Shown one piece after another: positions 1,560-48,532 of a DNA stretch of 64,000 nt. A program made the translations under genes and the position numbers. The notes below the pieces were generated by a model that worked only from the letters and a program-made list of their open reading frames with translations, was not told the origin of the DNA and did not search any database. The number at the start of each line of letters is the position of its first letter. Within the stretch, counting starts at the first letter, position 1. The stretch comes from Mayamaea pseudoterrestris (Eukaryota). The DNA lies in NCBI GenBank assembly GCA_027923505.1, contig BROI01000001.1, positions 372,001 through 436,000 of the forward strand. The letters run 5' to 3'.

Positions 1560-1953
1560 TATTGAGTATTCGCTTTATTGAATTGAAACGTTTTCGGCAA
1601 GTCGTTAGAAAAATCTCATCGGTAGAATGGTTAGCAAAGTATTTGCAAGTGTATGTGAGAGCTGCGCATGCTGCAACACGAGATCTTTGATCAAAATGTC
1701 GCAGTCAGTACCGATTCGACAGACATCAATATGGCTCAACGGGTACTAATATAGGCTCGGGAGGCTCTGCCGGCGCAATCGTCCTTTTGATTGGATAACG
1801 TGATATCTTTGGGGCCGTTTTCATGATGATGCACAGGACTCCTGATGGCTGATGTTTGATGTCTTTCGAATCACTTTCGCACCTCTTGATGAACCTGTGA
1901 TGCTTATACCAATACAATCATCAATCTCGAATCAACCAGCTATAAAAACAAGC

Positions 1954-4900
1954 ATGTACTTTCTGCTTATAACGGCGGTGTCTGCTGCAACGTTTGTGCC
2001 CTCACTGCCGAGCTTTAGAGGGCTTCCGACTTGCCCCAGCCAGAGTTCCCTCCATCTCGACCAACGACTTTCCAAGGTGCCGACACCCTATCCGTTCCAG
2101 CCAGTCGGTGTGGCTCCAGCTCCAACCAGGCCAGATGATGATGTGTCCTATGATCTCGACCTCCTCTTGCAGGAGACTGATGCTGATCTTCAGCTATGCC
2201 AGCAGGAGCTCGAGAATCTAAGCCTACTCGTTCCGACGTTGGAAGATCTGTATGAGACAACCATTCAGATCCAAGAAGCCATGCAGCAAAAAGAGATGGA
2301 GTACCAGCAAAACATTATTGTAGTTCAGCGAGAGTTTGAGAACTTGAGCAAACTGACGACTGAAAAGGTTCGCGATGAAGCTGAGATGAAGGTGAAAGAA
2401 TTGACCGAGTCTCTGACCAGCAAGGAGGAGGCAATCAAGCAGCAAGAGCGACAGTACCAGGAAACTCTGCGTAAGGAACGAGAAGAGGCAGATGCACGAG
2501 AGAAACTGTTCAAGCAGAAGACGGAATCGCTTGCGAAGGAAATGGCTCAGGTCAAAGCCAAGAGTGAACAGGAAAAAACACGAGAAGCTGAACTCCATTC
2601 TCAGATTGATTCGTTGCACCGAAAGCTGAAAGAACAGATGGAGCAGAACGAGGCAGTCAACTTTTCGCTACAAAAGCTGGAGGAAGAAGCGCAAGCAAAG
2701 GTTACTGCTGCTGAATCAAAGGTTCGAGCGAATCACGAGATATTGCAAACGAGCCTTCTGCAAGTTGCCTCGAAAGAAAAGCATCTTACGGCGCAAGTCA
2801 AAAAGATTGCTAGTTTGCTACAAGAAATGAAAGCCAAAGTTCTTGTTTCGCCGCGCATTTTCCGCAACTCGGGCCAAAGTGCTCCCAAGGCTCCGGCCAC
2901 GGTCGATCAACATAGTGGCTACAAAACAAATGGATTTCATCCAATGAATGGAGCTTCGCATGCAAGTGTCCAACCTCCATTGGTCGATATAAAACCAGTT
3001 GCATCCTCAGGTGACTATCTGAGTGCACTATCTGGATCTACATCAACATCTACACCAAAGAAATCATTTGCTCCTTACTCACAGACCGCAAAGCCGGTTG
3101 TCAGAGATATGGGATACCTCGGCAACTTGAATTCCGTCGCGACCACTTCAGCGTCGTCGCATGCATCTGCTGTGGCGAGTGCATCAACACCAACCAAAGC
3201 CGCTCCAGCATCAACTGCCGGCTACTTTAGTACCATGCCAAGCTCGTCAGCGGCCAGTGGGCCAAAGAAGTCATACGCTCCGGGCGGAGGATTGATGAAG
3301 ATTGTTAAGGAGTCTGGTTATCTTGGCAATCTAAACGCGGTCTCCGAATCGGTGCCAAGCAATTCAAACACAGCAACAACAAGCAGCTCAGCCCCGACCA
3401 CAACGCATGCTGCGCCAGCGACAACCGGTGACTATCTTAGCGCAATGTCTGGATCAACCGCTCACAGTGGACCAAAGAGGTCATACGCTCCTGGCGGAGG
3501 GTCAATGAAGGTTGTCAAAGAGTCGAGCTACCTTAGCAATCTCAGTGGGTCCGCTCATGCTGGTCCCTCGTACTCCCCTCCTGCTGATACCAGCACTTCT
3601 GCATCGACGACCACGCGAGATGCACCAGCGACAACCGGCGACTACCTCAGCGCAATGTCTGGGCCGACTGCTCACGGTGGACCAAAGAAGTCATACGCTC
3701 CAGGTGGAGGTTCTTTGAAGGTTGTCAAAGATTCAGGTTACTTGGGCAATCTCAACGCTGTTGCTAGTCCAAGTTTGTCATATTCGCCTGCTCCTGAAAC
3801 AAGCAATTCCGATTCGACGACGAAGAGTTCACTATCGACTGGAGACTATCTGAGCGCCATGTCTGGCTCATCGGCGTCGACTGGGCCGAAGAAATCCTAT
3901 GCTCCTGGCGGAGGATCAATGAAGGTTGTCAAGGAGACTGGATATCTCAGCAATTTGAGTTCCAATGGTGCTGCATCGACGGCGTCAACTCCGGCACACG
4001 TACCCAAATCGACTCCGTCACACTCACCCGCTGACTCTGATGCACCAAGTACAACGGTTACACCAGTCTCAACCGGCGACTACCTGAAAGGCATCTCTGG
4101 CTCGTCTGCCTCTGCAGGCCCAAAGAAGTCATATGCACCAGGGGTTGGGTCATTCAAGGTTGTCAAAGAGACGGGGTATTTTGGAAATCTGAATTCTGCT
4201 GCGGGCACTCCTCTCCCATCATATCAGTCTGCTAGTAAGCCAATTGCGAGGGCTGCACCAGCGTCCACCGGCGACTATTTGAAAGCCATGTCTGGCTCGT
4301 CTGCCTCTGCAGGCCCAAAGAAGTCATATGCACCAGGGGGTGGGTCATTCAAGGTTGTCAAAGAGACGGGGTATTTCGCAAATCTGAATTCTGCTGCGGG
4401 CTCTCCACTTCCATCAAATCAGTCTACTAGTAAACCAATTGCGAGTGCTGCACCTGCATCCACCGGCGACTACTTGAAAGGCATGTCTGGCTCGTCTGCC
4501 TCTGCAGGCTTAAAGAAGTCATATGCACCAGGGGGTGGGTCATTCAAGGTTGTAAAGGAGTCGGGATACTTTGCGAATTTGAATGCTCCCGCCGCCGGAC
4601 CGTCGGCAGCAGACCAGCCGGCTTCTGCTGCATCTGTGACAAGTGAGCGAGCTACATCAGCTTCGACAGGAGATTACCTAAGTGCCATGTCTAGGGCTCC
4701 ACCTACATCGTCAACCCCGAAGAAGTCCTATGCCCCAGGCGGCGGTTCTATGAAGGTCGTCAAGGATTCGGGATACCTCAGTAATCTGAATGCTGTGGCT
4801 CCACTTCCGTCGCAGGAAGCAAATCCCTCACCTACTAAGGACGTTGCGGCCAACGAATCTCCCAAACCAGTCGCCGCTTCTAGCGGGGACTACCTGAGTG

Positions 4901-5670
4901 CCCTCAATAGGTCTCCCATGACTCCTGGACCGAAGAAGTTGTTCGCCCCAGGCGGAAACAAAATAAAGCCAGCTGCTGATGGAGGCTACCTTGGTGGTCT
5001 TTCGCAAACTAGAAGTCCAACTAACGAGGCACCAAAACTGTTCACTATCGAACCGAAGGTCAAGTCGACAAGTGAGTATCTGAAGACTATGTCGGGGGCT
5101 TCGACAGCTGACTTTCTCAGTGCCATGTCCAGGAACTCGACTGAGTTTACCGGCGGCAACATGATGACTGGTGGTGAGCCAGTCGTACGTACTCCTGTGG
5201 CAAAGGAGACGCCCGCGGAGAATGTCAATGAGCCAAGTAGCTCTCAGAAGTCTTCCGCACCCGCATCGACGAGCGACTATTTGAGTTCCATGTCGTCCGC
5301 CTCCAAGACGTCATATGCTTCTTTTTCCGGGCCCAAGAAATCATTTGCCCCTGGAGCGGGTATGCCGAAGGCACCACCAGCCACGGGCTACCTCGGTGCT
5401 TTAGCAAATGCCGCCCCCATGCAATCCTACTCGCCTGCATCGACGCAAGAAGCTTCTGCTCCTGTGCCGCCATCCAGTCCTCAGGCCCCAGAGAAGCCTA
5501 AAGAATCAGAAGCGCCACCTGATACTGGTCTTTCATCATCTGTCGCTTCTTTGTATTCATCCATGCCACCAAGGCCAGTTCCGGAAGCTGAAACGGAAGA
5601 AAAGAAAGCTGGATGGTTGAAGGACGCAGTAAGTCCCATCAGGTCGTACCTTTCCAACTTGAGGAACTAA
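1954..5670 (+). CDS. Predicted plastid-targeted coiled-coil + low-complexity repeat protein; candidate pyrenoid linker/scaffold (PYCO-like)
   Basis: Single long ORF. ATG 1954 gives MYFLLITAVSAAT-FVPS (signal + ASAFAP-like). E/K/Q-rich coiled coil at about 2150-2830, then 11 units of GDYLSAMSG-x-KKSYAPGGGS-x-GYLxNLN separated by S/T/A/P spacers. The CDS is secure; the function is inference. Confidence 0.85.
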   Translation: MYFLLITAVSAATFVPSLPSFRGLPTCPSQSSLHLDQRLSKVPTPYPFQPVGVAPAPTRPDDDVSYDLDLLLQETDADLQLCQQELENLSLLVPTLEDLYETTIQIQEAMQQKEMEYQQNIIVVQREFENLSKLTTEKVRDEAEMKVKELTESLTSKEEAIKQQERQYQETLRKEREEADAREKLFKQKTESLAKEMAQVKAKSEQEKTREAELHSQIDSLHRKLKEQMEQNEAVNFSLQKLEEEAQAKVTAAESKVRANHEILQTSLLQVASKEKHLTAQVKKIASLLQEMKAKVLVSPRIFRNSGQSAPKAPATVDQHSGYKTNGFHPMNGASHASVQPPLVDIKPVASSGDYLSALSGSTSTSTPKKSFAPYSQTAKPVVRDMGYLGNLNSVATTSASSHASAVASASTPTKAAPASTAGYFSTMPSSSAASGPKKSYAPGGGLMKIVKESGYLGNLNAVSESVPSNSNTATTSSSAPTTTHAAPATTGDYLSAMSGSTAHSGPKRSYAPGGGSMKVVKESSYLSNLSGSAHAGPSYSPPADTSTSASTTTRDAPATTGDYLSAMSGPTAHGGPKKSYAPGGGSLKVVKDSGYLGNLNAVASPSLSYSPAPETSNSDSTTKSSLSTGDYLSAMSGSSASTGPKKSYAPGGGSMKVVKETGYLSNLSSNGAASTASTPAHVPKSTPSHSPADSDAPSTTVTPVSTGDYLKGISGSSASAGPKKSYAPGVGSFKVVKETGYFGNLNSAAGTPLPSYQSASKPIARAAPASTGDYLKAMSGSSASAGPKKSYAPGGGSFKVVKETGYFANLNSAAGSPLPSNQSTSKPIASAAPASTGDYLKGMSGSSASAGLKKSYAPGGGSFKVVKESGYFANLNAPAAGPSAADQPASAASVTSERATSASTGDYLSAMSRAPPTSSTPKKSYAPGGGSMKVVKDSGYLSNLNAVAPLPSQEANPSPTKDVAANESPKPVAASSGDYLSALNRSPMTPGPKKLFAPGGNKIKPAADGGYLGGLSQTRSPTNEAPKLFTIEPKVKSTSEYLKTMSGASTADFLSAMSRNSTEFTGGNMMTGGEPVVRTPVAKETPAENVNEPSSSQKSSAPASTSDYLSSMSSASKTSYASFSGPKKSFAPGAGMPKAPPATGYLGALANAAPMQSYSPASTQEASAPVPPSSPQAPEKPKESEAPPDTGLSSSVASLYSSMPPRPVPEAETEEKKAGWLKDAVSPIRSYLSNLRN
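3010..5410 (+). repeat. Coding tandem repeats (~65-70 aa, ~195-210 bp period) inside the repeat protein
   Basis: KKS(Y/F)APG-type motif occurs 11 times. Three near-identical DNA units start near 4072, 4267 and 4462 (195-bp period). Confidence 0.95.
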
Positions 5671-5848: not shown

Positions 5849-6772
5849 TTATTGTCCGCTTTGAACTTTCAAAGGCTCATCATGAAGCGGTGCCGCAAGT
5901 TCCGGTAGACTCGTTGCTTGCTCCTCGCCAATGTTTCCTCCGAGCGCCATGACACTTCGCTGATGTGTCGCCACGCCAACATACTCACTACTCTGGTAAT
6001 GGAGTCGCTGTCGCTCCTTGGCCGACAAGTCTCGTAATTTGCGTGCCGGATTGCCCACCCACAGTTCACCCGACGCAACGACTTGCTTTGGCTGGATAAC
6101 TGCGCCGGCGCCGATCAAGCATTCGGCCTGCACATGCGCACCTTCTCCAATGACGCTTCCCATGCCAATCAAGCAAAAGTCGTCAATCTTGGCGCTATGA
6201 ATCTGCGCCAAGTGACCAATCGTGACACCCTCTCCAATGACGGTATGGTCAATTCGTGATGTAATGACGCAACCATCCTGTACGTTGGTGTTTGCGCCAA
6301 TGAAGATTGCTCCGCCGTGGTGATGGTCAGAGTCTTTTGCGTTCAATTTCCATGGTTCCTTTATTTGACATTCTCCATCTTCTTGTGCTTCTACCAGTTC
6401 TGATCCATCTGATATAGCTTGATGATTCTCACTGTACACTTCTGCGTTGAGACACTCATCCGCTCGCAAAACGGCTCCGTACCAAACGGAGCACCCTGAC
6501 GCTATGTGAACACTGCCGATGAGCGTCGCACAAGGCGCCAAATACGCAACGTGTGGATGAACGATTGGCTTTCCAGAATATAGGAGCGGCATGAGTTGTC
6601 GATGTCGTGATAGATTATCATCAAACAGGCAAGGGTCGTCGTAGTAATCGTGCTTCGTCGCGGCGAGTTGAGCGGTCCGTAGACCGAGGCGGTCGAGTGC
6701 TTGGCCCGTCTCGCGAAAGGCGCGTCCAATAACTTGACGAAAATGTTGAACGAGTGATGGAGCTCGAGGCAT
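5849..6772 (-). CDS. Gamma carbonic anhydrase-like protein (mitochondrial complex I type)
   Basis: N-terminal GRAFRETGQALDRLG, SRHRQLMPL, hexapeptide repeats (SVWYGAVLRAD, IGANTNVQDG, VTIGH, LIGMGS) and ELWVGNPARKLRDL. The start is taken at MPRAPS. Confidence 0.9.
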   Translation of the reverse strand: MPRAPSLVQHFRQVIGRAFRETGQALDRLGLRTAQLAATKHDYYDDPCLFDDNLSRHRQLMPLLYSGKPIVHPHVAYLAPCATLIGSVHIASGCSVWYGAVLRADECLNAEVYSENHQAISDGSELVEAQEDGECQIKEPWKLNAKDSDHHHGGAIFIGANTNVQDGCVITSRIDHTVIGEGVTIGHLAQIHSAKIDDFCLIGMGSVIGEGAHVQAECLIGAGAVIQPKQVVASGELWVGNPARKLRDLSAKERQRLHYQSSEYVGVATHQRSVMALGGNIGEEQATSLPELAAPLHDEPLKVQSGQ

Positions 6773-7314
6773 AATGGATTTTGTGTAAGAAAGAAGCAAG
6801 CTGTGTATAGAGACAAGGTCCAAGCTGATGGAAGAGATGCAGCCTGAAAAAAATGGAGGGATGATCATCGCTTCCCCAAGTCGCACCGTTTTTCTCCATT
6901 GCCGGTAAGACGTTGACCTATCTTATTTCGCTTCATGATAGTCCTGGTCCGTCGTTTGCACAATTGCGCAACATCTACGCAGGAGTCGCCGCATCATTCC
7001 AGCTCGGTAGATGCAATCACCAGGGCTGCCGTTGCCGTCGATGCTTGTTGAGTGTGTAGCAGGCGCTGCCAGTCAATGGTGGAGTTTGCGTGCGAAAGAT
7101 ACTACGAGCTCGAAAACTAACTTGGCAGCAGAGCTGCTGCATATCAAACAGAGGGTCTACTGTATTAGTTTGCACTTTTGGCGTATGCGTATCTTTCACA
7201 AGCGTGTCTCGCCAGGATGCCGATCCATCCATCGCTAAACACCCAAAACCCAAACACAACCATCTCGCTCTACACCCCTTCTTGCTTGCTCATTTTCAGC
7301 AAGTGGTTCGCTCC

Positions 7315-8476: not shown

Positions 8477-10941
8477 CTACTCTACAAGTTCATCCCATGG
8501 TACAATGACAACCTTCTGCACTGAAACATCGCTGCGAATGACAATCCGAACGCCAAGAAGGTCGGACCGATCGACGCGGCTTTCCGACGCAAAGGCAACT
8601 CGAATGCGCAAGTGTCCGTTCCTGTGTACCACTCCTTGTCGACGACTGAGTGAAAAGTACTCGCGTCCAGTGCCTTTCAATGAGATGTCATTGATCGTCA
8701 AGGTTCCACTCGTTGTTCGTCCGACATAAAGAAATGCGTTGGACCGCCACTTGCCGTCGATCATGACGGGCGGATTGAATCTAAGCTTAGAGTCGCTTAT
8801 CCATTGGGCAACCTCATTCCAGGACCGTCGCTGCGTCACTTCTTGAATGTCACCATGTCCTTCCCCGTTATTGTACTTTGGAGACGAGTAGTATTTTTTA
8901 GCACCGCCGTTTTGCCGCAACATCCATTCCACAAGCAAGCATCTCAAATGTTCCGCCTTGCCGATCAGCTGCAAACTCTGCTTCTTCCGTGACAACAAGT
9001 TGTTCATTTCGTACGGATCGGTTGCAAGATTGTACATCATGTCTTGCGAGTCATAATCTGCGCTCTTGGCAATCAGTAACTTCCAATGTTCGTACCTAAT
9101 CATAAAGTTGGGAAATTCACCCAGCTTCTTGACTTCTGCATCCTCGGAAACACAAAAGTCATCATCATAAAGCTCATTATAGCTGCTTCCAGCAATCAAA
9201 GGACGTAGACTTGTGCCATCACTTTTGTCTAAACTGGACAACCCAGCGTAATCCAAAATAGTCGCCAACAGATTCAAATGTGCCCCGACCGGCCTACTGA
9301 CGACGGTTCCTGGCTCAATTTTGCCAGGCAGTCGCATCAAAAATGGAACGCGAAGAGCTTCTTCAATGAGCCCCAGCTTGCCTCCCATGCTATGAAGAAC
9401 CGTGCGCGCACAAAGTTAGAGCCATGCTTAAAGTTTGCAGCTGCTGAGCACGGGCATCATCGGAAATACTTACCCATGAGCACCAAGAAACTCGCCATGA
9501 TCCGACGTAAAAGCAACCAGTGTGTTTTCAGACACTCCTTGCCGATCTAACTCATCCAATAAGACACCAATCCACTCGTCAACTTGCTCAATCATTCCCA
9601 TGTACACGGCCGAAAACCCTTGCACAAGGTTGGGGTCGCGAAATCCTTTGGCAGCATCCGCTCGTTGCTTGGAAGCGTACCAGTCATTGTCAAATTTGCT
9701 CTGCATGTTGGGCGGGGTGAGAATGTCTTGCTGATTTTCAAGGTAGTATTGGGCGTACTCTTCGCTCACAACCCACGGCGAGTCTGTCGGCAAGTGAGAT
9801 GATTTATTGCAGCGGTCAGTAACCTCAAATTTTAAATATATATGCAACTGCAAAAGAGACACTTACGTGGATAGTCAAAAGAAACAGTCAAGACCCATGG
9901 CTTTGATTGCTGCGCCAATCGTTGAATGGCCAGCTGTCCCTGCCGCCCCGTGTAGGTTGCTAGCGAATATTTTGGCGGAAGTGAGTCGACACCAAACATA
10001 CTAAAATCCGCCGCCCTTTCAGAATATGGCTTTTGATAGCGTGGATCGATCTTGATTGGCGTGTAGAGACAACTGGTTCGAACGTTGTTTTGCATGCCAG
10101 GTTGGTAGATTTGCGGAAAGTCGCTTTCATCAACCCAGAACGCGACTTGCTTTAAATACTCATCCGCATCCTCCTCCTCGCCATCAAATATTGGATTTTC
10201 CATGTCAAGGTCGTAAGTGTTGTATGAGATTGCATTTTTGCTATTGTCTGCGCTTCTGTACCATCGAGCAGGAAGATGAAACTTGCCGAATGATTCCGCC
10301 TCGTAGCCTTGGTCGAAAAGAATCTGATCGTAAGTACGAACAGAATTTATTTTGCGTGTAGCAATCGGATCATTCGTGTAATCTGGAAGCATTCTATTTG
10401 CTTCTATGCCATGTCGTTCAATGGTGCAACCAGTTCGGAGGGTTGCTCGGGCTGGAGCGCAACTTGCAAATTGAGAGTAGGCGTTTTGAAACCATACACC
10501 ATCCTTGGCGAGGCGATCAATGTTGGGAGTCTTGACATGGAGTTTATCTTTGTATATCGGCATACTCTCCTGAATGAATTGAATATAATCATAGCGAAGT
10601 TGATCCATTGTAATTATGAGAATATTTAGTTTCTTGTCGTCGCTGTTGGCTTGTATCGTCACATCTTGGTGCGACAATTTAAACGTTTCCTCCGACACTG
10701 GCTTAGAGAAAGTCGCCAAGGGTTCATATTTTTCGTTACTAAAGACATCGTCAGTTGCGTATATGGAAGAGTCTGCTGTCGTTGATACGTTGTTGCTGGT
10801 GCTTAAAATGGCTTGCACCTCTCCAGCTTCGACTCTGAGTTCGTCGGACGGTTCGTTTCGGTTACTACTAGTTCCTCCATCAAGTGCGCTTGCCCTGGAA
10901 AATGTCAGCGAGACAAGCAGCAGCAGCAACAACGGATTCAT
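8477..10941 (-). CDS. Secreted sulfatase (formylglycine-dependent, S1); exons 10941-9867, 9783-9474, 9389-8477
   Basis: Signal peptide; NILIITMDQLR, TPNIDRLA, CAPARATLRTG (CxPxR), GKFH, spliced YP-HSPW, FTSDHGE, RVPFLMR, YNLATDPYE. Two canonical introns of 83 and 84 nt. Confidence 0.93.
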
Positions 10942-13724: not shown

Positions 13725-16063
13725 CTACAAAAAGGAATGTTCCGGCAAGGACGGCATTTCCACGTCATCATTGTACGTTGGTCCAACTTCAGCATCATCT
13801 TCCGTGTCTGGTTTCATCAAATCTTCCTCTTCATTCGAAGAATCGGACGAAAAGGAAGCGCTGCGAGAAGCGTTGGTTTGTTCCGTATTGGGACTACGCT
13901 GGCGCTTTGGTTTGAAGAAGCCATCCATTTCGCGACTTGCGCGGTACTCCATCTCCTGCGCCCACCAAAGGCGATGCATGTAGGTAAGTGTAACGAGTGA
14001 GAAGCAAGTGATGAAGAGAATCATGACAATGTTCTTGTGAGGCTTCTTGGAATGGGAGTTGGACGGAGACTTATCGACAGCAAAGTTGCTATCATTATGC
14101 CGGTTCATGACTGTATTGTACTCGAATGCGTTACCCTGAGTAAGACTGTTTTGATCATCGTCATTGCCATTGTCATCATCGTCGACGTGACTGTTGTTCT
14201 TGCTCTTGCTTTCTTCGATGGGTCTTGTCGGACTGCTGGTTGCCACGTCGATCGACGGTTCGATCGTCGGACCCTCGGTGATGGCGGCGCTGCTGCTGCT
14301 TGCAATAGTAGTACTAGCGGTCGGGCTACTTGTTTCAATGCTCATCGTGCTGCTGGCCGTCGGAAAGCTCGTGGCAACGCGACTCGTCGTTGGGCTGTAG
14401 GTCGGTCGCCTCGTCGTAGGACTTGCCGTCGCGGCAACAACGTCATTGTCGCTTCGACTACTCGCCGCGTACAAGAGCGAGCAAACTGACGAGTCTGGCC
14501 CAATTCCAACAATCAATACATCCGCAGTCGATCCAGTAGCATCGGAACTGACGCTGCAAACAACAATTACTACTCCATTCGCAACAAACGGATTATCATT
14601 CTCGGTCAAACTTGCCACCAAGTTAGTTCCGCTGGAGGTTTTCTGAACAATGACGAGTGTATCAGGATGTTCGCCTGTGTCGCTGTTGTAACTCTTGGCG
14701 CGATTGTACTGCAAGTAAAGTCCCATGCTGACAATTTCCAAGACAACATATTGACTTGGATTAGTCAATTTGTAGTCTACAAATGCCGCCACTTGATATA
14801 AATTCGATACTCCAGTATCCACTTGTAGCAAGCGATCGTCGTACCAGCCCAATTGAGCGTGGTTTTCCGCATTATAGCATCGCTGCGGAAAGTCGACCTT
14901 TTCAGTTGCCGATCCCATGAAGCCTGTAGTGTCGCCATAGTCCATGCCGCCTTCCCAAGAATGCATCAAGCCAAAGCTGTATATTGAAAGCGAGAATATG
15001 GGTAAGATGAAGGTAGCAAGCTTGCACTTACTCAATTATTTGTGCGCATTCAAACAGCAGAGTTAATTAATAATTCATTCAACGAATTCACTCACTTGTG
15101 TCCCACTTCATGCGCCATGCCTCCCATATACGTAGCCCATACATCATTAAAGACAGTTTGCTGTCCCGGAATGGTTCCAAAGGCGGCCCAGTCAAACTGC
15201 GCCCGGCCCGATCCCGTGGAAATGGTTCCCGGTGGCAAAACAAACATGATTAAATCCGAAAGATTTCGAACGTCTGTGATGCTACTGTCGCTGCGTTGCA
15301 CCACTGGCAGTGCTGCATCATACGCTTCATTGACCAAGTCCAAGTAGTTGCGTCCATTGGCCGACAAGTTGACGCGAGCGTCCAAGACGCCAAAGGACGT
15401 TGGCGCAATATTAAGCTTTCCAGCCGAGCAGCGAAGCAGTTGCGATCGGAGCGACATGGATGAATCGAAAACATAGTAGTGCATTTCGTCACTCGTCGGA
15501 GTTGGTTGCGCGTCATTGGCAATGATACGAATGACAATGGCAGTCAATGTTCCCGAGTTGGGAGGTGCGCCAAGCAAGTGGCGATGGTCATGCCGTATCA
15601 TGCTGCTGCTCGCAGTCTCATCTTCATGGAAAAGCTCCAATGATGCATCCTTTGCAATCACAACTTTGTTTTCGGCAATGCGTCCATTTGAAATCTTAAG
15701 AAACAAGAGTTTGCCTCTGGCGAGGCGAGGCTTGGCGCTTTTGAGAATCTCGATCAACGGCGCATCTTCATCCTTGTCCTCGGTGAAGCTATACGTGTAT
15801 GGGAGCGTGACTCCAAACTCGACTGGCTGACACGAGACAAAATCGCGAGACGTATGCGATGCTTGTTTTTGCTGCTTTTGCAAGGCATTAAAAAGGACTA
15901 ATCGGCAGTGCAGGACGGATGCAGAGTCCTTGTCCTGGCTTGTTGTTGCGACAGTCGCAGCAGGAGATGCCGCAGCAGCAGTCGTTACTTGCAGTAGAGC
16001 CAAAAGCATCATTGCAAAGCATCGAAGACTGTAGCAACATGACGCTATTGTCCTTCTCTTCAT
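13725..16063 (-). CDS. Gametolysin-like M11 metalloprotease with Ser/Thr stalk and C-terminal TM helix; exons 16063-15096 and 14976-13725 (ORF stays open upstream to 16423, start uncertain)
   Basis: HEVGH-N|FGLMHS is joined by a GTGAG..CAG intron. YGDTTGFMG, CYNAENHAQLGWY, T/S/P-rich region, hydrophobic IVMILFITCFSLVTLTYM. Confidence 0.88.
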
Positions 16064-16819
16064 TGCTTGAGTGATGCTGCTCCTCCTTTCGTCAAGTACA
16101 AGCGGTGATCGCTCCGCTGGTGAAAGAGCGTCTTTGGCTTGTAAAAGAGCATGCCGGATTACCTCCGCAGCCTTGTTGCGACCTTCCGCCGCTTTAGCCG
16201 ACTCGTGTTTCCCGTCATGGTCCTTTTCCTGGACATCGTCATGACCCCGTTCCTCTTCGTCCCCGCCAAGATTAGGATCGACTGGACCAGGCAGCATCGA
16301 GTCGTCACGGCCCGGATAGAGATCCGTCGATTGTGCCAGGACTGTACTGGAAGGCAGATTCGTAATCATTATGAAGAGATGATTTAGTTTGCCGCAATAA
16401 CACAAGGGAAGATAGAGGTGCAAGTACTATGGTCTTGAATTTGGTGGAGGGAATAGATGATGGAAGCATTGCTCATTGGCTTTTTTAGCTCGTGGAAAGG
16501 TTCGTCATCAGAACGTTGAATGTCGCAGTTAAAACCAGTAAGACTTTTGTTCACAATACATACTACCTGAAGCAATACACGATGCTCAACTACAGATATC
16601 ATAGCATGCATGTGGATAGATCCAACTAAAACAACAGCAACAATAGAATTACGTGCGATCCCGTTCATTGGGTGCATATAAATGGGTCATCTTATACCAG
16701 CTTCGGCACCATTCTATACCGGTACTAACTTCCGTCCTCGTCAACTTACAATTTTTGGATGGAAGCGAGAAAAGCCTGTTTCGCCGACGATCAACTCGTC
16801 GGCAATGATAATTTGCATC

Positions 16820-24447: not shown

Positions 24448-25455
24448 TCATAACTTGCGGAGCAACCAATCGGGCAATTTTTTCGTCGGACGCCAAATGG
24501 TGCTATTCAATCCCATGATCGTTACCTTGCCTTGGGCAATCGGGTTGTAACCTCCTTTCGTTAGCACAGACACGGTCTGCATGCAGTCAACAACCATGCC
24601 TCCCTTTTTCGAGCAGAATTCGGTATGCACAGTCACTGGGCAGTCTCCTGGCGACAGTACCTTATCATTGGCAAGTAGTTTCAAGTCTGTCATGGTCGTG
24701 ACCACGTAAACGACGCCGTCCTCCGTCTTCATGCGGTTCAAGGCGTTCGGACCGCCAATCCAGTTGGTGCGCGCTCGTTCAAAGAGCTTCAAGACTGTAA
24801 ACAGCGGCAAGTGACGAGGTAACTGCGGATCAAATTCGTCGCGAAACGTAGTAAAGGTGTCGATCGTAAAAGTAGAGTTTGGTAAAGACGAGTCGATTGA
24901 CGGCAGGCGATCATATTGCTCGACATGGTTAGTCATGGACTGTAATTTGACATTCGTTGCCGTCGAGTATACAGTCGCTCCATCTGGACTCAGCATCGTC
25001 ATATTCCATGCTTGAGAGTCCTTGCAAAACTCTCCTTTCACAAGAAACTCTTGTCCCAAAGTTGGCGCTTGCTTGAACTTTAGCTCGCCAACTTGCACAA
25101 TGCTCCAGTGTGGCGACGGAGGAAAACCAGCTAATGATGGTTCCTGCAACTGCGCCTGATGCATGGCTCGCTCATAGGTTCGCATATAGTTGGCATTATA
25201 CTTGACGCCGTATGCATCTGTATCTTCAATGTAAATTGGCATGGGCGGAGACGTAAAGACGGATGGTTTTGTAAGGCCAACTACCGATTGGTCGGCGACG
25301 CAATCTAATGGATCGCAAGCTTGCAGCTGCATAAACGAAGGCCTCCGCCTCGTTAACATGTAATTCCTTTTATTATCACTGAATCCATTTATATAATAGC
25401 TTCGCAAGTCGCAAAGGATCCAGAAGATAGCCACAAGTGAAAGGCGGTTCGTCAT
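24448..25455 (-). CDS. Double hot-dog thioesterase (4HBT/YbgC-like), probably plastid-targeted
   Basis: IYIEDTDAYGVKYNANYMRTYERA; second domain LKLFERARTNWIGG. Signal MTNRLSLVAIFWIL..ING-FS. Confidence 0.8.
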   Translation of the reverse strand: MTNRLSLVAIFWILCDLRSYYINGFSDNKRNYMLTRRRPSFMQLQACDPLDCVADQSVVGLTKPSVFTSPPMPIYIEDTDAYGVKYNANYMRTYERAMHQAQLQEPSLAGFPPSPHWSIVQVGELKFKQAPTLGQEFLVKGEFCKDSQAWNMTMLSPDGATVYSTATNVKLQSMTNHVEQYDRLPSIDSSLPNSTFTIDTFTTFRDEFDPQLPRHLPLFTVLKLFERARTNWIGGPNALNRMKTEDGVVYVVTTMTDLKLLANDKVLSPGDCPVTVHTEFCSKKGGMVVDCMQTVSVLTKGGYNPIAQGKVTIMGLNSTIWRPTKKLPDWLLRKL

Positions 25456-25780
25456 GGTGGCGTCGGCACTTTTTTGGATAATCATGGACGAAGGACGACG
25501 ACGGAAACAGGAGTACCAGTACGACTTAACCACCATTGAGAAATGGTGCGACATTTGCGAGCGAGTACGGGGCACGCGACGATGCGTTCGACCATGGCCG
25601 CAAAATCTTTGCCAACGGATCCATACCTTGTCGTTGCCATTGACTGACACCAAGGAAGATTGCAAGAGTCGCTTTCCTCGCGCTCACCATCTGATTTTCT
25701 GGTAGACGAGCCGACAATTTATCTCAATCCGACTGACTTGCTTCGCTCATAGCCAGCATCGAGCACCCTCAGATCCTCAG

Positions 25781-28723
25781 ATGCCATCCTCATCCGCCAT
25801 GAAAGACTCTCTCCAAAATGCTCCCATTCGCCCCGTCTGTAGACGACTTCCATTTTCACAAAAATTATGGGAAGATTCAAACCTTCCATTTGGTCTCGTG
25901 GTGACCCCGCTAGCAGCTAATGCTTCATCCGCTGATGCATCATCATCGCAGTCGTTGTCGCTCATCCCAAAGTGCTTGCAGTGCGGCGCCCCTCATGCTA
26001 TCAAGGAGACGCATTTTCGACTGCCAGCACCAAGTGAGAGAGAGGAGGATGCTCGGATTCTTTGCTACCTTTGTGGAGCAACGTCTTTTACCAGTAAAAA
26101 GCTGCAGCAAGCCAAGCGAGAGGCAGTGGAAGGACCGATTGATTTGCAGCAAATACAGCAATCTTCCAAGAAAACTGATCCTTTTCTATTTGATCTTCCA
26201 CTGCGATTGCCTTCAACGGAGCAGCAATCCAGCATTCCAGCCATTGCCTGTCCGCCTCTATGGTTCATTCTACTCGACGGTACCTGCACCAGTCCATCAT
26301 ACTGGAAAGCGACTAGTCACGTCTTGCTGCAAGCACTTTCAAACATTCCTTCGCACGTCCATGTATCTCTCTTGATTGCAAGTCATAATATTGATGACGG
26401 CAATATTGACGACAATACTGACAATGCAAACGTCATGTCCATCTTTCAACTGACCAGTCCGATTCCTCATTTGCTGCACTACTCGGAAAAAAATCGAAAC
26501 GACTTGGTGCAAGCGATCGCCAACAGCTTGACGGACGGCATGCATCGGTCGCATCTGCAGACGGCCGTAAGATCTCTGTTGGACTATAAAAGCAATCAAT
26601 TTTCAATCTTTGATGACGAGTTTCTTGCTGAAAAACAGCATACGTCGTCATCGAAAGGCATTCACCTTGCTTGGTGCGTGGAAACGATACTGGATGTTTT
26701 ACAGTCGCATGGACAAGTCGCAGGCCAGCGCCAAGACATGAATGTTGACGATGGTGGCAGCAAGTTCATTCTCAAGCGACCCTACGCTGGCGCCAAGTTG
26801 ACCTGTCTATTGTCGCAACAACCCAGTGGCGTTTGTCGCAGCAATCAACGTTCTAAAAAGTCGTCGGGGTTCATGTCGAGATTGATGCGAGAGAAGCAAC
26901 AACAATCTACAACGGCGACGCCAACCATTGGAATGGGTGGATTTGGCGGACGCATCGCCAGTCAAGCTGATCGAAAAATAAACTCACAGCAATCTACCAG
27001 TACAACAGACGTACAGAATGGCCACAGCGGTGATGCAACGGCGGATGCTTTTCGTAGAGCAAGCGTGGACCTGACGCCAGGTCAGCTGGAAGAAACCTAT
27101 CAGCCTTTGCCTGACATTGCCTTGTACATGGACGAGCTTGGTCGGCAGTGCGCGCAAGCAGCAACTGGTGTCGACTTGCTATTTTTGCTCGAACAACCAG
27201 ACGACGAGCACAGCTCCTTTAAACCATTGGCGCTACCATTGTACGGACACTTGGCGAGCAAGAGTGGCGCTCCGGGCCCATTACTATTTGATTGCAACGA
27301 CGAAACTTCCATGGACCGACTGGAACGAGAATTGGCTGCTCGAGTACCCTGGCGCGAAGGCATGGTGTTTGCCGCTGAGCTGCGCCTTCGACTACCATTG
27401 GGCTTTGTCGTCGATGACGCGGCATTGGAGACGAGCCGTGAAGAAAGGGGCCCGCAGCTGGCTCCGCTGTGGGTAGATGCCGGGCTGATGGGACCGGCAT
27501 CATCCGTTGATGATTCGAAGCAATTGTGGAGGATGGGCATCTGCGACGCGTTCACGTCGTTTGCGATTGATTTGCGCCTGAAGGATGCGACAGCCCCTCG
27601 TGAGATATCCGTGCCAGGACTGGGCACTGTCGCAACCAAGCCTGTGGTGCAAACATGCTTTGCTTATACAACGATTGAAAAGGATGACTGTGGCACGTAT
27701 ATTGTTAAACGACGAATGAGGATACATAGTTGTCCGGTACCACTTGCGAACGAATCGGAAATGCTTTATACTGCATTGGATACCGAAGCATTGACTGTGG
27801 TTCTGTTTCACAAGTTGGCGATTGCTTTGTTCCAAGACGGAATAGCGGAAGGCGTAAATGTTGCAGAAGACTGGCTCATCTCCACACTTGTTGCTATTTA
27901 CAATTCCGCAGAAGAATATCACGAGCAGACGAACAATAAGGCAACTGTTAATGGCAATGGAAGCAACAATTTGAATTTTCTAAGCCATGAGCGATTACTG
28001 GACCAGGAAGGCGAATTTTCGACCGATGATGTATTGTTGGCTCAGGGCCACATATTGCTGCGACGCATAGTACTCATCATCTATCAGCTCATGCAGTGCC
28101 ATGCATTTCGCGTGCCGCATGACAACTTTATTCCCTCATCCGACCTTCGACATGCTGCGTTGTGCCAAATGCAATCTATGCCGCCTCAGATATTGAATCG
28201 ATGCATCAGACCGCTACTACAAGCATGGTTGAGTGGAATGGAAGCTACAGAGCCTGTTATCGATGCAGTGGAGCTTCGCCGCAAGTCAGTTCGCCTGGCT
28301 GTGGAAGAATTTTCCAAGTACGACGACGTCTTGTTCTTCTTGAACAGTCCAAGTATTGTTGCACTGCTTGATGGGCGGACGTTAGAAGAGCAAAATAAAG
28401 GATCGCAGGAGAGTTCAGCGCTGCTCGTCAACGCCAAGCTTCAGAGCACTGTGAGTGAGGCATGTCTGTCATATCGTGCGAAGTTAGACGTGATTTATAG
28501 CCTAGGAGGTGAGATCGGCACTTATGACTCGATGGATATCCTCTCCGACGTTTTAATCCGAGACATGGCGAGTGCATCCGGCCACGCCAACTTTACAAAA
28601 TGGAAGAAGGATATAGCTGCACGCGTGCTTGAGTAAGTACTGCTGTATGTTATATCTGACATTTGACGCTCACGAAACATTTCACTTTCTAATTGTTGCA
28701 TTTACAGGGAGCTTGACAAATAG
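25781..28723 (+). CDS. Divergent Sec23/Sec24-like protein; exons 25781-28632 and 28708-28723
   Basis: LPFGLVVTPLA, zinc finger CLQC..CYLC, vWA-like FILLDGT, beta-sandwich VVQTCFAYT..RRMRI. A GTAAGT donor at 28633 and TTTACAG acceptor add EELDK*. Confidence 0.75.
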
Positions 28724-44922: not shown

Positions 44923-46213
44923 TTACATGCACTTCATCTTCATGGCATTGCCACCCTTGCAAGTGAGCCCAACGCAGCACTGATTAGAGCTAGTGCAAGT
45001 GACTGAAGATGGACGGCAAATGTGATCCAAGCGGAAGGTCTCGAACTGGACAATCATGCGTTCGATCTGTCCTGGCGTGAACTCCCCGTTCTCCTTGAGA
45101 CAGTTACCTCCAACGTAATTCATATGATTGTTAATCGGGTCTAATCCAATGTCCGCTCCGTTGTTGAGGTCCTTGCACGTGTCGAGAGGAGGGCTGTGGA
45201 GGAAGTCAGGCGCGAAAATGGATTAGACGGTTGTTTACCGTGCAGACCTTAAAGCCAATGACACACTTACTTGAACTTCCAGCAAACATTCGCACCAGGA
45301 AGAGCATTCGTTGGTCCAGAGTGGGCGGGAGTATCGGCTACATCGTCTCCCGAGAGATGCATGATGACCGGAGTGTCATCTTCACCCAACTTTAGATTCC
45401 ACACCTTGGGCGAGCAACCTCCCTTTAAAGTTCGACGTGGAAGACAATGTGAGTGCATCATTTACAAGCGTTCCAGCGTCTCTTGTATCGATGGAGACTT
45501 ACCTCGAACGTGTGTAACAAACCAAGGAAGTGACCGGTCTCGTGGACAATGTTTTGGATGGCAGTCTCCTTCTTGTCAAGCGCCGGTACGAGAGCCGTGT
45601 TGCGGATGACAACACCATCATAAACATCTCCGCTTTGAAGAGGATAACTTGACCATGAACGGCTATCGGAGGTGGACGAATCACAAATGTAAATGTTCAG
45701 GACGTTCTTGCCTGCAACTTTTAAGGTTTGCTTCATCAAGTACTCGCTAGCACCCAGGCGCTCGCATTTGCCGTAGTCCGCACTCTCGACAATCTGAATG
45801 CCCTTGAGGTCAAAGTCAAAAGGAGTCTGACGAAATCCGTACTCGAGAGCCTTGAAGTGGACCGACTCAATCGTCTCCTTGGTGAGGATCTGGCCGGCGG
45901 TGCTACCAGGAGCGTAAGCGTGCCAAATGTAAACTGGAATGGTGTAGTTCTTCATGACGGTGGACTGCAACTTGCGACCACTTGCCTTCCAAGTGTCGAC
46001 CATCTTGGCTACTTGCAGGCGCTCTTCGACCGAAGGTGACTGGAAGCCACAGTGTGACTGGCTGTCTTCAAAGGCATCTTGAAGAGTGCGGTCATGCGCG
46101 TCTTGCTCGTTAAGCGGGGAGCCGAGACGACGCGCACCAGAATCGGAGCATCCAGCAGCCCCGCCCATGGCGACGGACAGCAAAAAGAAAAGTCGGGCAA
46201 AGGCAGGAATCAT
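44923..46213 (-). CDS. M43 (pappalysin/ulilysin-like) metalloprotease, paralog A; exons 46213-45503, 45422-45271, 45193-44923
   Basis: Signal peptide, propeptide CG, LNIYIC, DGVVI, HETGHFLGLLHTFE|GGC, DDVADTPAH, NHMNY, FTPGQIERM, Cys-rich tail. Confidence 0.92.
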
Positions 46214-46695
46214 GGTCAGTTGCGCGTTGATAATTTAAAGTTATTTTCGGTTGCAGTGCTTTGAATTTGTGAGGAATTTGGTAACCAAAAGCAATTTGAC
46301 GAGCGAGGCATGCCTACGTGAGAAGCATACCGTGCGTAGATTTTGTACTGTAGACGTCGTTCAGGGAGCTGTGCGTGTGGACCGTGGTAAGCCTACCGAA
46401 CGTAGAAGCTGTACTCTTGACGATGTAGAGCCGGAAACGAAGCGGCAAGCGATTCTGGTCGTAAGTGTGACTGGACGCGACTGTCGTTTCTGGCGAATGA
46501 CCGATGACCGCGGTGTCGCATTTGTGTCGCTCCGAATGAGCTAGCGAGGAGTACTCGCCAAGTCAATTGGCTGAGAATTACTGTAGCAGACATTGCCATG
46601 GAAGTAATATCACTTTGTTACTAGTGCTTCTTATTGGTGTTGGGACTGACTACCATAACTAATTTACCCGCACCGCAGCTCATGCGAAGCATGGC

Positions 46696-48021
46696 TTATT
46701 TGGGCGTCGGTCCTTTGCACTTCTTCTTCATGGGACTTCCCCCAATGCAGCGCAAACCCGCGCAACACTGGTCATCCGAGACGCAAGTAATGTCACTGAC
46801 GCGGCAAATGTTGTCCAGGCGAAAGGTTTCATGCTGGACGACCATGCGCTCAATTTGACCGGGAGTAAACTCTCCAAACTTCTTACTGCAAGTACCTAGC
46901 AGATAATTCATCTGATTCTTTACAGGGTCCGCGCCATACTTTTGGTTCTTGCAGGTGTTGAGAGGAGGGCTGCGTTAATGCGAAAAATGATTGTGAGGTC
47001 TTAGTGAGGGTGCGAGTTCATCGTTCGCATCAAAAACACTTACTCAAAGATCCAGCACACATCCTCGCCGGGAACAACGTCTTTCGTCGGAATTTCGTGC
47101 TGTGCTGTGTCATCTACTCCGTCTCCACTGACAACAATCTTGCCGTCGGATGACTGAATAACCCGATTGGAGCACCCGCCTAAGGTTGCAAAGATTGTGA
47201 GAGATCGAATTTGCTGCGTCGCTGCAATTGCTTGCGGATGGCCTCACGTACCAAGAAAGGTGTGTTCCAACCCAAGAAAATGACCGACTTCATGGACAAT
47301 GTTCTCAATCGCGTTGATCTGCTTGTTGCCAGGCGGAGTTGTTGCATAGTTGCGCAGGACGCTGGGAAAATTGACGAGACGTACAAGGGTGAGCGCAAAC
47401 GTAGGAGTGCACACATTTAAAGCTCACGTAGACTCACACGCCAGAATACTCTTTCCAGGTGTCTTCTTCTACTGGAAAGCTCGACCAGTAACGACTGTCA
47501 GAAGCGGAAGAGTCGCAAATGTAAACGTTCAAAACATCCTTGCCAGGCGCCTTCAACGCTGCCTTCATGGCATATTCGCTTGGGGCTTCGCGCTCGCAGT
47601 GACCAAACTCGGCACTCTCAACAATCTGAATATCCTTGAGCTCAAACTGGAAGGGCGTGTCGCGGAAGCCATACTGAAGTGCCGCGAATTGGTTGGCGGC
47701 GATGAACTCCTTGGTGAGAATCTGGTCGGGAGTGCTGCCGGGCGAGTAGGTGTGCCAAAAGTAAACCGGAATGGTGTAGCTCTTGACGGCACTCAGCTTG
47801 CGACCACTCGCTTTCCAATGGCTGACCGACTTGGCAATCTCCAAGAGCTGCATGTCCGTCGACGGCTTGGTTCCGCAAGACTCGTGCTCTTCGACGTCTT
47901 TCGCGAGCTGGCGAGCAAAGGAAAGCTCCTCCTCGGGCGAGCCCAAGCGACGACCGCATCCAGCGGCGGTGCCCATGGTGAGAGCGAGGACGAAAGCGAG
48001 ACGAGCAAGGGACGTAAACAT
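46696..48021 (-). CDS. M43 metalloprotease, paralog B; exons 48021-47438, 47361-47252, 47179-47044, 46969-46696
   Basis: Signal peptide, SCGT, HEVGHFLGLEHTFLGGC after splicing, DGVDDT, NQMNY, FTPGQIERM, Cys-rich tail. Confidence 0.92.
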
Positions 48022-48122
48022 GGCGATGATGGTGCTTGATATGTCTTGCCGCGGCCGAAAAATGACTGTTCCGAAGCTTTGCAAAATGATTTCACGACCA
48101 TTAATGTTCGCTTTGGACATGT

Positions 48123-48287
48123 GAGTCCTCGATTTTTAAGGGAGTCCTCGTGTGAACTGGCATTTGAGCGTCATAAAAGGGATTATCGCGAGCTGACGAT
48201 GCGATTGTACGAATGAGGGAGTCTACTATTAGATTGCGGGAGTCCTCGATTGCTCCAATCTGTGGAATTATGTCGTGGGAGTCCTCG
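48123..48287. promoter_or_regulatory. Clustered GAGTCCTCG motif upstream of M43 paralog B
   Basis: Exact copies at 48123, 48142, 48240 and 48279, plus a degenerate GGGAGTCTAC at 48217. The regulatory role is inferred only from position. Confidence 0.4.
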
Positions 48288-48532
48288 CTTTGGATCGTGC
48301 GACGAGTTCTCGGTCGAGGCGAGTGTCACTGCGACAAGACCCGTTACTGAAGTGTGCCTCGTCGCCTTTGCCAATGCGGTGGCCTCTTCGCTTGTTTGCT
48401 AGGCACATACTTGTAATTCGGGCAACACTACACGGACTAGCTGTAATATCAATGTTATTTATCCCGTTCGTTTTGGTGGCCTATATATGTATTTCCTGTC
48501 CACACCCGCACTTGTCAAAATGCGCACAGCAC

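Follow-up and report, generated by a model that had tools for sequence, protein, structure and literature searches.

A coiled-coil protein with eleven tripartite repeat units in the diatom Mayamaea pseudoterrestris: a tentative candidate for a plastid scaffold

A stretch of 64,000 nucleotides from contig BROI01000001.1 of Mayamaea pseudoterrestris (the window in what follows) encodes a repeat protein of 1238 amino acids (aa), in which an import-type N-terminal signal and a predicted coiled coil precede a long basic region that displays 11 units of three short motifs each. The explanation that we favor, and favor tentatively, is that this protein is imported into the plastid and oligomerized through its coiled coil, and that its units, binding to Rubisco or to the pyrenoid, make it a highly multivalent scaffold. 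The original prediction did not recognize the architecture as a described one, and the literature agrees: neither full-text searches for the motif strings nor the literature on diatom pyrenoids and linkers yielded an account of the family or its motifs in print, although the candidate tables of 10.1101/2023.10.25.564039 may list related proteins.

Architecture of the repeat protein

The open reading frame (ORF) runs uninterrupted from 1852 to 5670 on the plus strand and could specify 1272 aa. Two in-frame ATGs, at 1852 and 1900, lie upstream of the one at 1954; the product from ATG-1954 is the protein analyzed here (P0001, the window protein), and the database gene model of the locus (P0002) begins at 1900. 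Over aa 330-1238 the composition is S 19.3, A 13.8, P 10.2, G 9.7 and T 7.7%, and these five residues together make up 61% of the region, as the prediction of an S/T/A/P/G-rich tail had it. The isoelectric point (pI) is 9.48 for this region and 9.05 for the whole protein.

Eleven units had been read in this tail, and 11 cores do align, each with a DYL-type motif, a KKSYAPGGGS motif and a GYLxNL motif. The core of 50 aa has a mean column identity of 65% across the 11 units, with Y10, K24, A28, P29, K35, Y42 and L46 invariant, and its consensus is xxAPASTGDYLSAMSGSSAxxGPKKSYAPGGGSxKVVKExGYLGNLNxxA. Units follow one another at 65-78 aa, and once, from unit 10 to unit 11, at 129 aa; at the DNA level, Tandem Repeats Finder gives periods of 210 and 195 bp. 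The pattern K[KR][SL][YF]AP occurs 11 times. DYL-type motifs number 13 (11 in the units, with EYLKTM and DFLSAM between units 10 and 11), and [GS]Y[LF]x[NGA]L occurs 12 times, in the 11 units and in a C-terminal SYLSNL. The protein had been said to end in that motif; SYLSNL is indeed the last one, and the exact end is SYLSNLRN, so that the motif stops two residues short of the C-terminus. The sole tryptophan of the protein, W1221, lies with this last SYLSNL in the C-terminal tail. The features, in window coordinates, are as follows.

1954..5670, plus strand: coding sequence of the window protein, 1238 aa; stop codon at 5668-5670, frame open from 1852
1954..1992, plus strand: signal-peptide-like hydrophobic N-terminus, aa 1-13, MYFLLITAVSAAT; 31 aa if ATG-1900 is used
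1993..2133, plus strand: transit-peptide-like stretch, aa 14-60, which starts F-V-P and is rich in S, T and P (from composition and ASAFind-matrix score)
2134..2853, plus strand: acidic coiled-coil-like helical region, aa 61-300, pI 4.9 (from composition and periodicity)
2989..3141, plus strand: unit 1 core (DYLSAL / KKSFAPYSQ / GYLGNL)
3196..3345, plus strand: unit 2 core (GYFSTM / KKSYAPGGG / GYLGNL)
3406..3555, plus strand: unit 3 core (DYLSAM / KRSYAPGGGS / SYLSNL), the unit used for AlphaFold2
3616..3765, plus strand: unit 4 core
3820..3969, plus strand: unit 5 core
4054..4203, plus strand: unit 6 core, first of three recently duplicated 65-aa periods (195-bp, 90% matches)
4249..4398, plus strand: unit 7 core, in the 195-bp duplication
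4444..4593, plus strand: unit 8 core, in the 195-bp duplication
4648..4800, plus strand: unit 9 core
4864..5013, plus strand: unit 10 core, degenerate (KKLFAPGGN, GYLGGL)
5074..5127, plus strand: two additional DYL-type motifs that stand alone, with neither of the other motif types of a unit (EYLKTM...DFLSAM, aa 1041-1058), kept in the ortholog fragment P0005
5251..5415, plus strand: unit 11 core (DYLSSM / KKSFAPGAG / GYLGAL), with a 5-aa insertion
5542..5667, plus strand: conserved C-terminal tail, aa 1197-1238 (SLYSxxPPRPV ... GWxKDAxSPIxSYLSxLR), colinear with the C-terminus of P0005
1560..1953, no strand: intergenic region between the divergent Dak1 gene (minus strand, start side at 1559) and the repeat-protein gene; it holds the alternative ATGs 1852 and 1900 and presumably the promoter and 5' untranslated region of the repeat-protein gene

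The recently duplicated units allow selection on motifs and spacers to be compared directly, albeit in small numbers. Between units 7 and 8 the proportions of nonsynonymous (pN) and synonymous (pS) differences are 0.058 and 0.32 in the core and 0.57 and 0.43 in the spacer; between units 6 and 8 they are 0.109 and 0.33 in the core and 0.55 and 0.41 in the spacer. The motif cores are thus under purifying selection, whereas the spacers, with a pN/pS of about 1.3, are not. In an AlphaFold2 model of a single unit (unit 3, with 11 paralogous rows) the chain is a low-confidence coil with a mean predicted local distance difference test score (pLDDT) of 60.8, and the only helix is at unit residues 7-14 (TGDYLSAM).

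The coiled coil announced in the original prediction is supported as a predicted feature of 240 aa: residues 61-300 are nearly free of proline and glycine, consist to 36-71% of E, K, R, D and Q, and have a hydrophobic periodicity of 3.5 residues (z=4.7) that is equaled in 3 of 500 shuffles, whereas aa 330-600 of the repeat region lack it. This periodicity suggests that aa 61-300 may oligomerize the protein. Searches of the window protein against Pfam, NCBIfam and PDB sequences returned no family match, only sub-threshold coiled-coil noise (weak matches to SMC, Rad50, Hook3 and SidF, all below the cut-offs), and an ESM Atlas search of the repeat region gave no usable match.

The unit in other proteins

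A profile built from the 11 units was searched against 1.84 billion representative proteins. At E<=0.001 it matches 19 proteins, the window's own included, 10 of them at <=1e-10; a homology search from one relative, P0004, gave 6 proteins, and the unit profile, run over all six frames of the window, picked up no further copy of the unit. One relative, with 20 units, is a hypothetical protein of M. pseudoterrestris (GKZ01055.1, E 3e-181) and is the only one of the 18 with an NCBI source. One other relative carries a species name, Psemu1/304763, a hypothetical protein of Pseudo-nitzschia multiseries, and the rest are JGI, ENA or Logan records. We take both named species to be raphid pennate diatoms.

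In the 18 other proteins the unit can still be recognized where identity falls to 28-40%, and the same residues are invariant. Weighted by protein, these relatives keep Y10 in 97%, P29 in 95%, L43 in 91%, G41 in 86%, L11, S26 and L46 in 83% each and G31 in 78%, and further kept positions are S12, L/M14, K24, Y/F27, A/S28, F/G30, K35, V37 and Y/F42. The motifs that had been noticed in one protein thus have cores conserved across species. One relative, P0005, is a colinear ortholog fragment that keeps EYLxxM...(D/Q)(F/Y)LSAMSRNSTxFTGGNMM together with the C-terminal tail. By their sequences, these proteins form a real sticker-spacer family, and a very small one.

This conservation also bears on the notion that the ORF is functionless, fast-evolving low-complexity sequence, in which replication slippage produced the repeats and recent duplication their likeness. 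The 195-bp tandem duplication of units 6-8, at 90% matches, and the missing Pfam, NCBIfam or PDB family would suit such an origin. The persistence of the same invariant residues in 18 other proteins, the core pN/pS well below 1 against about 1.3 in the spacers, and the conserved, colinear C-terminal tail of P0005 speak so clearly against it that we regard this notion as very improbable and as largely refuted already by cross-species conservation.

In the family, the unit is combined with domains of several kinds. It is joined to a coiled coil that is N-terminal in the window protein and C-terminal in P0017, to a Cupin_3 domain in P0015 (E 6e-12), and to an all-beta jelly-roll domain in P0003, P0010, P0012/P0027 and P0008. 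The last of these, with P0026, represents proteins of 1912-1958 aa (ENA and JGI records) in which one ORF comprises a signal peptide ending SLA/F (slashes mark cleavage sites here and below), an acidic region, the jelly roll, three units of the form PKKSYAPxGxxMKNVTSTGYLGELE and a C-terminal region of 510 aa. This last region is weakly FAD-Rossmann-like (FAD, flavin adenine dinucleotide), its matches, of the geranylgeranyl-reductase and lycopene-cyclase type, all lying below threshold.

The all-beta domain (about 175 aa; P0003, P0010, P0012/P0027, P0008/P0025/P0026) has about 80 invariant columns in a six-protein alignment and always occurs with the repeat units. It has no sequence match in Pfam, NCBIfam or PDB (PDB at E up to 10), and ESM Atlas returned nothing informative for it. 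A model from the six-row alignment, with pLDDT 50-84 over residues 167-346, resembles a jelly roll of the concanavalin A (ConA) or SPRY type. In a fold search the best match was the legume-lectin domain 7exo_A (Z 11.4, root-mean-square deviation 3.4, 148 aligned), and about 50 folds tie at Z 9-10.6, among them lectins, GH16, PL7, ERGIC-53 and SPRY. A kinship of this domain with PyShell was considered and rejected, given the missing PDB sequence match at E up to 10 and a fold search that leads to ConA or SPRY jelly rolls. The label PF21875 on the Mayamaea protein was likewise discarded as a low-complexity artefact with 0 matched stretches. MPSEU_001057200 is unmentioned in the accessible supplements of the Mayamaea copper-stress paper.

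Import signal and putative partners of the units

The original prediction placed F-V-P directly after a signal peptide, and the window protein does start MYFLLITAVSAAT/FVPSLPSF, with a plausible cleavage site before the F. Its N-terminus reaches a mean Kyte-Doolittle value of 2.3 in the best 10-aa window and offers the candidate sites VSA/A, SAA/T and AAT/F; the first 60 aa have a pI of 9.8, with 4 K+R and 1 D+E. Diatom plastid proteins carry a signal peptide followed, after the cleavage site, by F or less often W, Y or L, and F at +1 is crucial for import (PMC4329603). ASAFind requires one of these residues no more than two positions away from the SignalP site, together with a transit score >2, and its low-confidence class has a sensitivity of 0.93 and a specificity of 0.82 (PMC4329603). 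Our cleavage-site procedure was an imitation of ASAFind and was not SignalP: a hydrophobic window and the -3/-1 columns were used first, followed by the published slide of +/-2 positions with the ASAFind matrix. By the -3/-1 rule the site of the window protein is SAA/T, and the published matrix shifts it by one residue to AAT/F. In this imitation the ATG-1954 product has F at +1 and a transit score of 5.53 against the threshold of 2, most of it (3.25) from the F itself.

The pattern extends to the family. Among 13 hydrophobic family N-termini, the crude procedure finds F, W, Y or L at +1 in 8, namely F in P0001, P0003, P0015, P0020, P0027 and P0042, and Y at doubtful sites in P0007 and P0041; that of P0015 is a textbook ARA/FAP. 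Inspected by eye, 12 of the 13 have F, W or L after the last plausible site, and P0019 (ASA/M) is the sole misfit. Since these N-termini are otherwise dissimilar, the pattern is hard to explain for proteins that only enter the endoplasmic reticulum (ER), and given the specificity of the ASAFind low-confidence class it is unlikely to be a coincidence. We therefore consider it probable that the window protein is imported into the plastid. Seven members (P0003, P0004, P0007, P0019, P0020, P0024 and P0027) carry an S-Y-L/M-x-x-L/I motif 1-4 residues past the +1 residue, as in F-SSYLSSL, F-GSNSYLNQL and W-NSYLQTL, so that the mature or transit N-terminus of these seven would begin with a sticker-like element; the window protein is without it.

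We speculate that the system works as follows. A nuclear gene of a photosynthetic, pennate-type diatom would encode a product that enters the ER by its signal peptide and, by virtue of the phenylalanine after the cleavage site, passes onward into the stroma of the plastid. The acidic 240-aa coiled coil would pair or bundle the chains there, and the basic, disordered C-terminal 900 aa would display 11 units per chain, each with the short helix DYLSAM, KKSYAPGGGS and GYLxNL, separated by variable spacers of 15-30 aa. As stickers, the units would hold on to a multimeric partner with symmetry, form ID Rubisco being the most likely one, and the pyrenoid matrix would thereby be cross-linked or tethered; the same unit on other domains would recruit the related proteins to the same place.

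Published screens for Rubisco linkers look for largely disordered proteins with repeating structured elements 20-120 residues apart (PMC11570498), and for at least 3 repeats and a pI >8 (bioRxiv 10.64898/2026.07.16.738900). In our own comparison with these FLIPPer-type criteria the window protein falls inside the ranges for repeat number, spacing and pI, with 11 repeats 65-78 aa apart (once 129) and a pI of 9.05; its composition and the low-confidence model of one unit suggest disorder with a short repeated helix. The known linker of diatoms is PYCO1 (Phatr3_J49957), the Rubisco linker of the Phaeodactylum tricornutum pyrenoid, which has six repeats of about 80 aa and a pI of 10.03 (PMC10288592). 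Its small-subunit sticker is KWSPRGGS, with an essential W, just as given in the original prediction; the homotypic sticker is GTGYNP, and the C-terminal large-subunit helices are AAEWGSMNQ and ASEWASMNT (PMC10288592). The authors of that paper report no homolog outside the P. tricornutum genome. In T. pseudonana, too, no repeat linker is reported to have been found.

The host's Rubisco genes can be followed in four DNA runs that contain the window stretch and that were mapped on a diatom-type rbcL-rbcS locus. Run X1, with 0.91 of the window words, contributes a 16.9-kb contig at depth 1300 that covers rbcL and rbcS without indels, with 120 differences in 1499 bases of rbcL (92%) and 42 in 429 of rbcS (90%). 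Run X4, from another sample, agrees with X1 on the variant letter in all 25 listed rows where it has depth, and the rbcL-rbcS type common to the two most likely belongs to the organism. Diatom-type rbcL-rbcS in the runs of the organism provides the precondition for a pyrenoid. In run X2, from the same sample as X1, 806 short rbcL-rbcS pieces map on L070:1300-3300 (191 at >=99%, 258 at 95-99%, 297 at 90-95% and 60 at <90%); X2, with pieces at several identity levels, is thus mixed and seems to hold several diatom-type plastid sequences.

The pocket in which the PYCO1 helix binds the large subunit is formed by Y89, D92, F102, F104, L361, F366 and F482 (PMC10288592). All 20 diatom-type RbcL sequences that were taken from metagenome loci carry these same residues, so short aromatic helices of the DYLSAM or GYLGNL kind would probably find the same pocket in any diatom. 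Of the small-subunit contacts in the diatom-type loci, N133 is conserved at >=90%, and N105 and G137 are merely the majority residue. The 20 loci (among L001-L080) start rbcS with GTG, and their RbcL and RbcS are 92-96% and 80-90% identical, respectively, to the first sequence. The site on L8S8 Rubisco that PYCO1 uses is the four-small-subunit site.

Several points weigh against a Rubisco-binding plastid scaffold and are considered here together. The first concerns the likeness to PYCO1, on which the original prediction had leaned. KWSPRGGS and SYAPGGGS share 4 of 8 positions, a score matched by 3010 of 10080 motif shuffles; with W required on the aromatic residue, 289 of 10080 shuffles reach it. 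GTGYNP agrees with the unit consensus at best in 2 of 6 positions, as do 360 of 360 shuffles, and the loose acidic-aromatic-x-S likeness of the PYCO1 large-subunit motifs to DYLSAM scores at chance level. The strings KWSP, WSP, GTGYNP, GYNP and EW[GA]SMN are absent from the window protein, and KWSP and WSP also from the 18 relatives. Searched against PDB sequences at E up to 10, in which the presence of a PYCO1 fragment chain is unconfirmed, neither the window protein nor the unit profile retrieves a chain resembling PYCO1. In the wider family the middle motif takes the form KxSY[AS]P[FG]GxKPKxV, and GGGS is confined to the window and Mayamaea-type proteins; the GGS part becomes F-G-x-K-P-K in most relatives, and the family-wide common part reduces to aromatic-(S/A)-P-x-G. 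Because it has none of the PYCO1 motif strings and its likeness is near chance, the window protein is not recognizable as a member of the PYCO1 family, and the KWSPRGGS alignment is a lead, not evidence. From the proposal of a multivalent linker there remain the sticker-spacer architecture, the basic repeats, the spacing in the linker range and the import-type F; the motif likeness to PYCO1 and the conservation of GGGS fall away.

The import signal has its own difficulties. Translation may start at 1852, 1900 or 1954, and with ATG-1954 the signal peptide has only 13 aa and no charged n-region. The crude rule failed on 5 of the 13 family N-termini (P0004, P0013, P0019, P0024 and P0026); in four of these five, inspection by eye places F or W 3-5 residues past the site given by the rule (AYG/F, CES/F, AEG/W, SLA/F). 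The raw ASAFind-matrix maximum over the first 60 residues was also tried as a test and rejected: 14 of the 29 other window ORFs reach at least 5 and internal stretches have a median of 5.2, and because the unanchored maximum does not discriminate it was replaced by the site-anchored version.

A third point is the range of the family. None of the 18 non-self matches (clusters at 90% identity) bears the name of P. tricornutum or T. pseudonana, and the family therefore cannot be a general diatom solution; PYCO1 and the other linkers are themselves lineage-restricted, so that a separate linker family is to be expected in other diatoms. As to expression, the effective number of codons of the gene is 53.8, inside the 43.7-59.4 of the 29 other window ORFs. 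This absence of codon bias, a weak proxy for abundance, might be unlike an abundant matrix protein. Finally, no described linker has a coiled coil of 240 aa, which would fit a tether better than a matrix linker.

These last two points also suit a plastid-imported multivalent scaffold whose partner is a stromal or thylakoid-surface multimer other than Rubisco; a lattice of PyShell, the machinery of plastid division or of the nucleoid, and membrane surfaces are examples, and the coiled coil would be a spacer or tether. Such a scaffold would share the import-signal evidence; the unit is used modularly with unrelated domains and has no specific sequence link to known Rubisco-binding motifs, and the codon bias expected of a stoichiometric Rubisco partner is absent. 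In the accessible literature, however, the pyrenoid is the only known plastid system with many short motifs on disordered basic proteins across several architectures, the period and pI of the repeats lie in the linker range, and no result obtained here points to another partner. We consider a non-Rubisco partner unlikely, if by no means far-fetched.

The remaining points lead out of the plastid altogether, to a structural protein of the cell wall or mucilage whose signal peptide would lead to the ER only and whose lectin-like domain, in the relatives, would bind wall polysaccharide. The signal-peptide-like N-terminus and the raphid pennate diatoms among the named relatives agree with this, as does the order of an acidic N-terminal part and basic repeats, which silaffin-1 of Cylindrotheca is said to share. 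The repeats contain 19% S and 7% K, with S/T/P-rich spacers, 8 K..K motifs and 9 N-x-S/T sequons. An RXL propeptide site after the signal peptide is a silaffin- or cingulin-like feature, and a single RGL occurs at aa 22-24, nine residues past the cleavage site, a three-residue pattern of little information. The modeled ConA-like jelly roll of some relatives, whose best matches include lectins and glycoside hydrolases, suggests the secretory pathway, where lectin-type domains are commoner than in plastids; the SPRY reading, SPRY domains being intracellular protein binders, would point to protein binding, so that this domain cuts both ways. There is also a biosilica-associated precedent in a raphid diatom, AC3362 of Amphora coffeaeformis, a Y- and K-rich modular protein with a signal peptide and 15.5% K (PMC4220933).

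The residue after the signal peptide speaks against a wall protein, being F, W or L in 8 (crude procedure) to 12 (by eye) of the 13 family N-termini. Only 42 of 1138 windows of 100 aa reach K>=10% and S>=18%, the thresholds of a screen for silaffin- or cingulin-like proteins, and the means of the repeats are 7.2% K and 19.4% S. The GDPH motif is absent from the window protein, and none of six family motif strings occurs in the supplement on the Amphora Y-rich proteins (PMC4220933). It would be unusual for wall proteins to be combined with an E/K-rich coiled coil of 240 aa, with a cupin or with an FAD-Rossmann-like domain, and SPRY domains tie with lectins in the fold search. Overall, a wall or mucilage function seems to us an unlikely explanation that nonetheless deserves to be kept in view; if it were true, the family would still be undescribed and would be a case of a misleading ASAFAP-type signature.

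Returning to a scaffold that binds Rubisco or the pyrenoid, a stricter version can be formulated. The tripartite unit (Y-L-S-x-L/M ... K-x-S-Y/F-A/S-P-x-G ... G-Y/F-L-x-x-L) would be the Rubisco-binding motif of a group of pennate diatoms, the window protein, with at least 22 units per oligomer, would be a matrix linker or a matrix-to-boundary tether evolved independently of PYCO1, and the relatives with 1-20 units on cupin, jelly-roll or FAD-type domains would be pyrenoid clients. In so specific a form we find it doubtful. Were the favored reading true, a Rubisco linker or tether would have arisen independently for the third or fourth time, here with a motif grammar of its own, and the protein would be the first such candidate in a diatom outside Phaeodactylum. 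Roughly a fifth of the CO2 fixed worldwide is fixed in diatom pyrenoids, and to our knowledge PYCO1 is the only diatom Rubisco linker known. The window protein offers a concrete, clonable candidate from another diatom lineage, in which the packing of Rubisco becomes directly testable, and the 50-aa motif profile selects a small set of partner candidates. If the motif served as a common address for the pyrenoid, the proteome of the diatom pyrenoid could be mapped with it by sequence.

The surroundings of the gene can be described briefly. Upstream, a dihydroxyacetone-kinase gene with Dak1 and Dak2 occupies 1-1559 on the minus strand, extending past the window start, as two ORFs (975-1559 and 1-885), between which a short intron of about 89 bases probably lies. 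The head-to-head arrangement with its start at 1559 leaves just about 300-400 bases for a shared promoter, and CO2/cAMP-responsive hexamers (TGACGT and similar) are absent from 1560-1953, a weak pointer in this species. The convergent downstream neighbor (5849-6868, minus strand) encodes a protein of 339 aa with hexapeptide repeats of the left-handed beta-helix kind (Pfam Hexapep, E 5e-13), of a type that we take to include mitochondrial proteins resembling gamma-carbonic anhydrases. A sulfatase follows at 8477-10941 on the minus strand as two ORFs, a Sulfatase N-terminal part at 9832-10941 and SGSH_C at 8477-9388, which suggests a separating intron or break of about 440 bases. Of the 31 long window ORFs scanned, 13 have no Pfam match at E<=1e-5, including one of 951 aa (25781-28636, plus strand); these ORFs lie in 13725-16369 (minus strand), 24448-28636 and 45458-54982.

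Comparison with known systems

With silaffin-like, cingulin-like and tyrosine-rich biosilica proteins, the window protein shares a signal peptide, a modular low complexity rich in S, K, Y, P and G, the K..K spacing and the lack of similarity to other families. It differs from them in its lysine content (7%, as compared with 15.5% in AC3362), in the F at +1, in its long coiled coil and in having relatives with cupin and FAD-like domains.

Like PYCO1, it is a diatom protein with an N-terminal plastid presequence and a mostly disordered chain (both predicted here), basic, and with tandem repeats of similar length (about 80 aa in PYCO1, 65-78 here), each of which carries more than one conserved aromatic motif; one motif is of the type aromatic-small-P-x-G-G-S, and a separate tryptophan element lies near the C-terminus. 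Unlike in PYCO1, the position of the essential W of KWSPR is taken by Y or F, after an extra residue, and there are 11 tripartite units instead of 6 bipartite repeats. The 240-aa coiled coil has no counterpart in the accessible description of PYCO1, and the Y-L-x-x-L/M motifs are absent from PYCO1.

The linkers of the green lineage, EPYC1, CsLinker and SUPA1, are restricted to their lineages, with no sequence conservation between them. They resemble the window protein in being disordered (as predicted here) and basic, with at least 3 evenly spaced repeats that combine a short helix-forming sticker (putatively so in the window protein) with a flexible spacer. These linkers have 5-6 stickers in about 300 residues, whereas the window protein has 11 units in about 1240 residues and a predicted oligomerizing domain; in their accessible descriptions, neither they nor PYCO1 have a long coiled coil. 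They bind form IB Rubisco, and any partner here would be form ID. Rubisco binding has been shown for PYCO1, and both abundance and binding for EPYC1, CsLinker and SUPA1; in the window protein, Rubisco binding is putative.

The modular use of the unit has its closest parallel in the pyrenoids of Chlamydomonas and Ulva, where one short Rubisco-binding motif occurs on unrelated architectures (for example SAGA1/SAGA2, RBMP1/2 and PUMA1) and would bring all of these proteins into the Rubisco matrix, much as one unit is found here on a coiled coil, a cupin, a jelly roll or an FAD-like domain. SAGA1 also joins long coiled coils to Rubisco-binding motifs. The motif sequences of these proteins are unrelated to ours, and the copy number in the diatom proteins is far higher, with up to 20 units per protein. 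If the favored reading is true, the recruitment of clients by the unit would be the red-lineage counterpart of the shared-motif logic of Chlamydomonas and Ulva.

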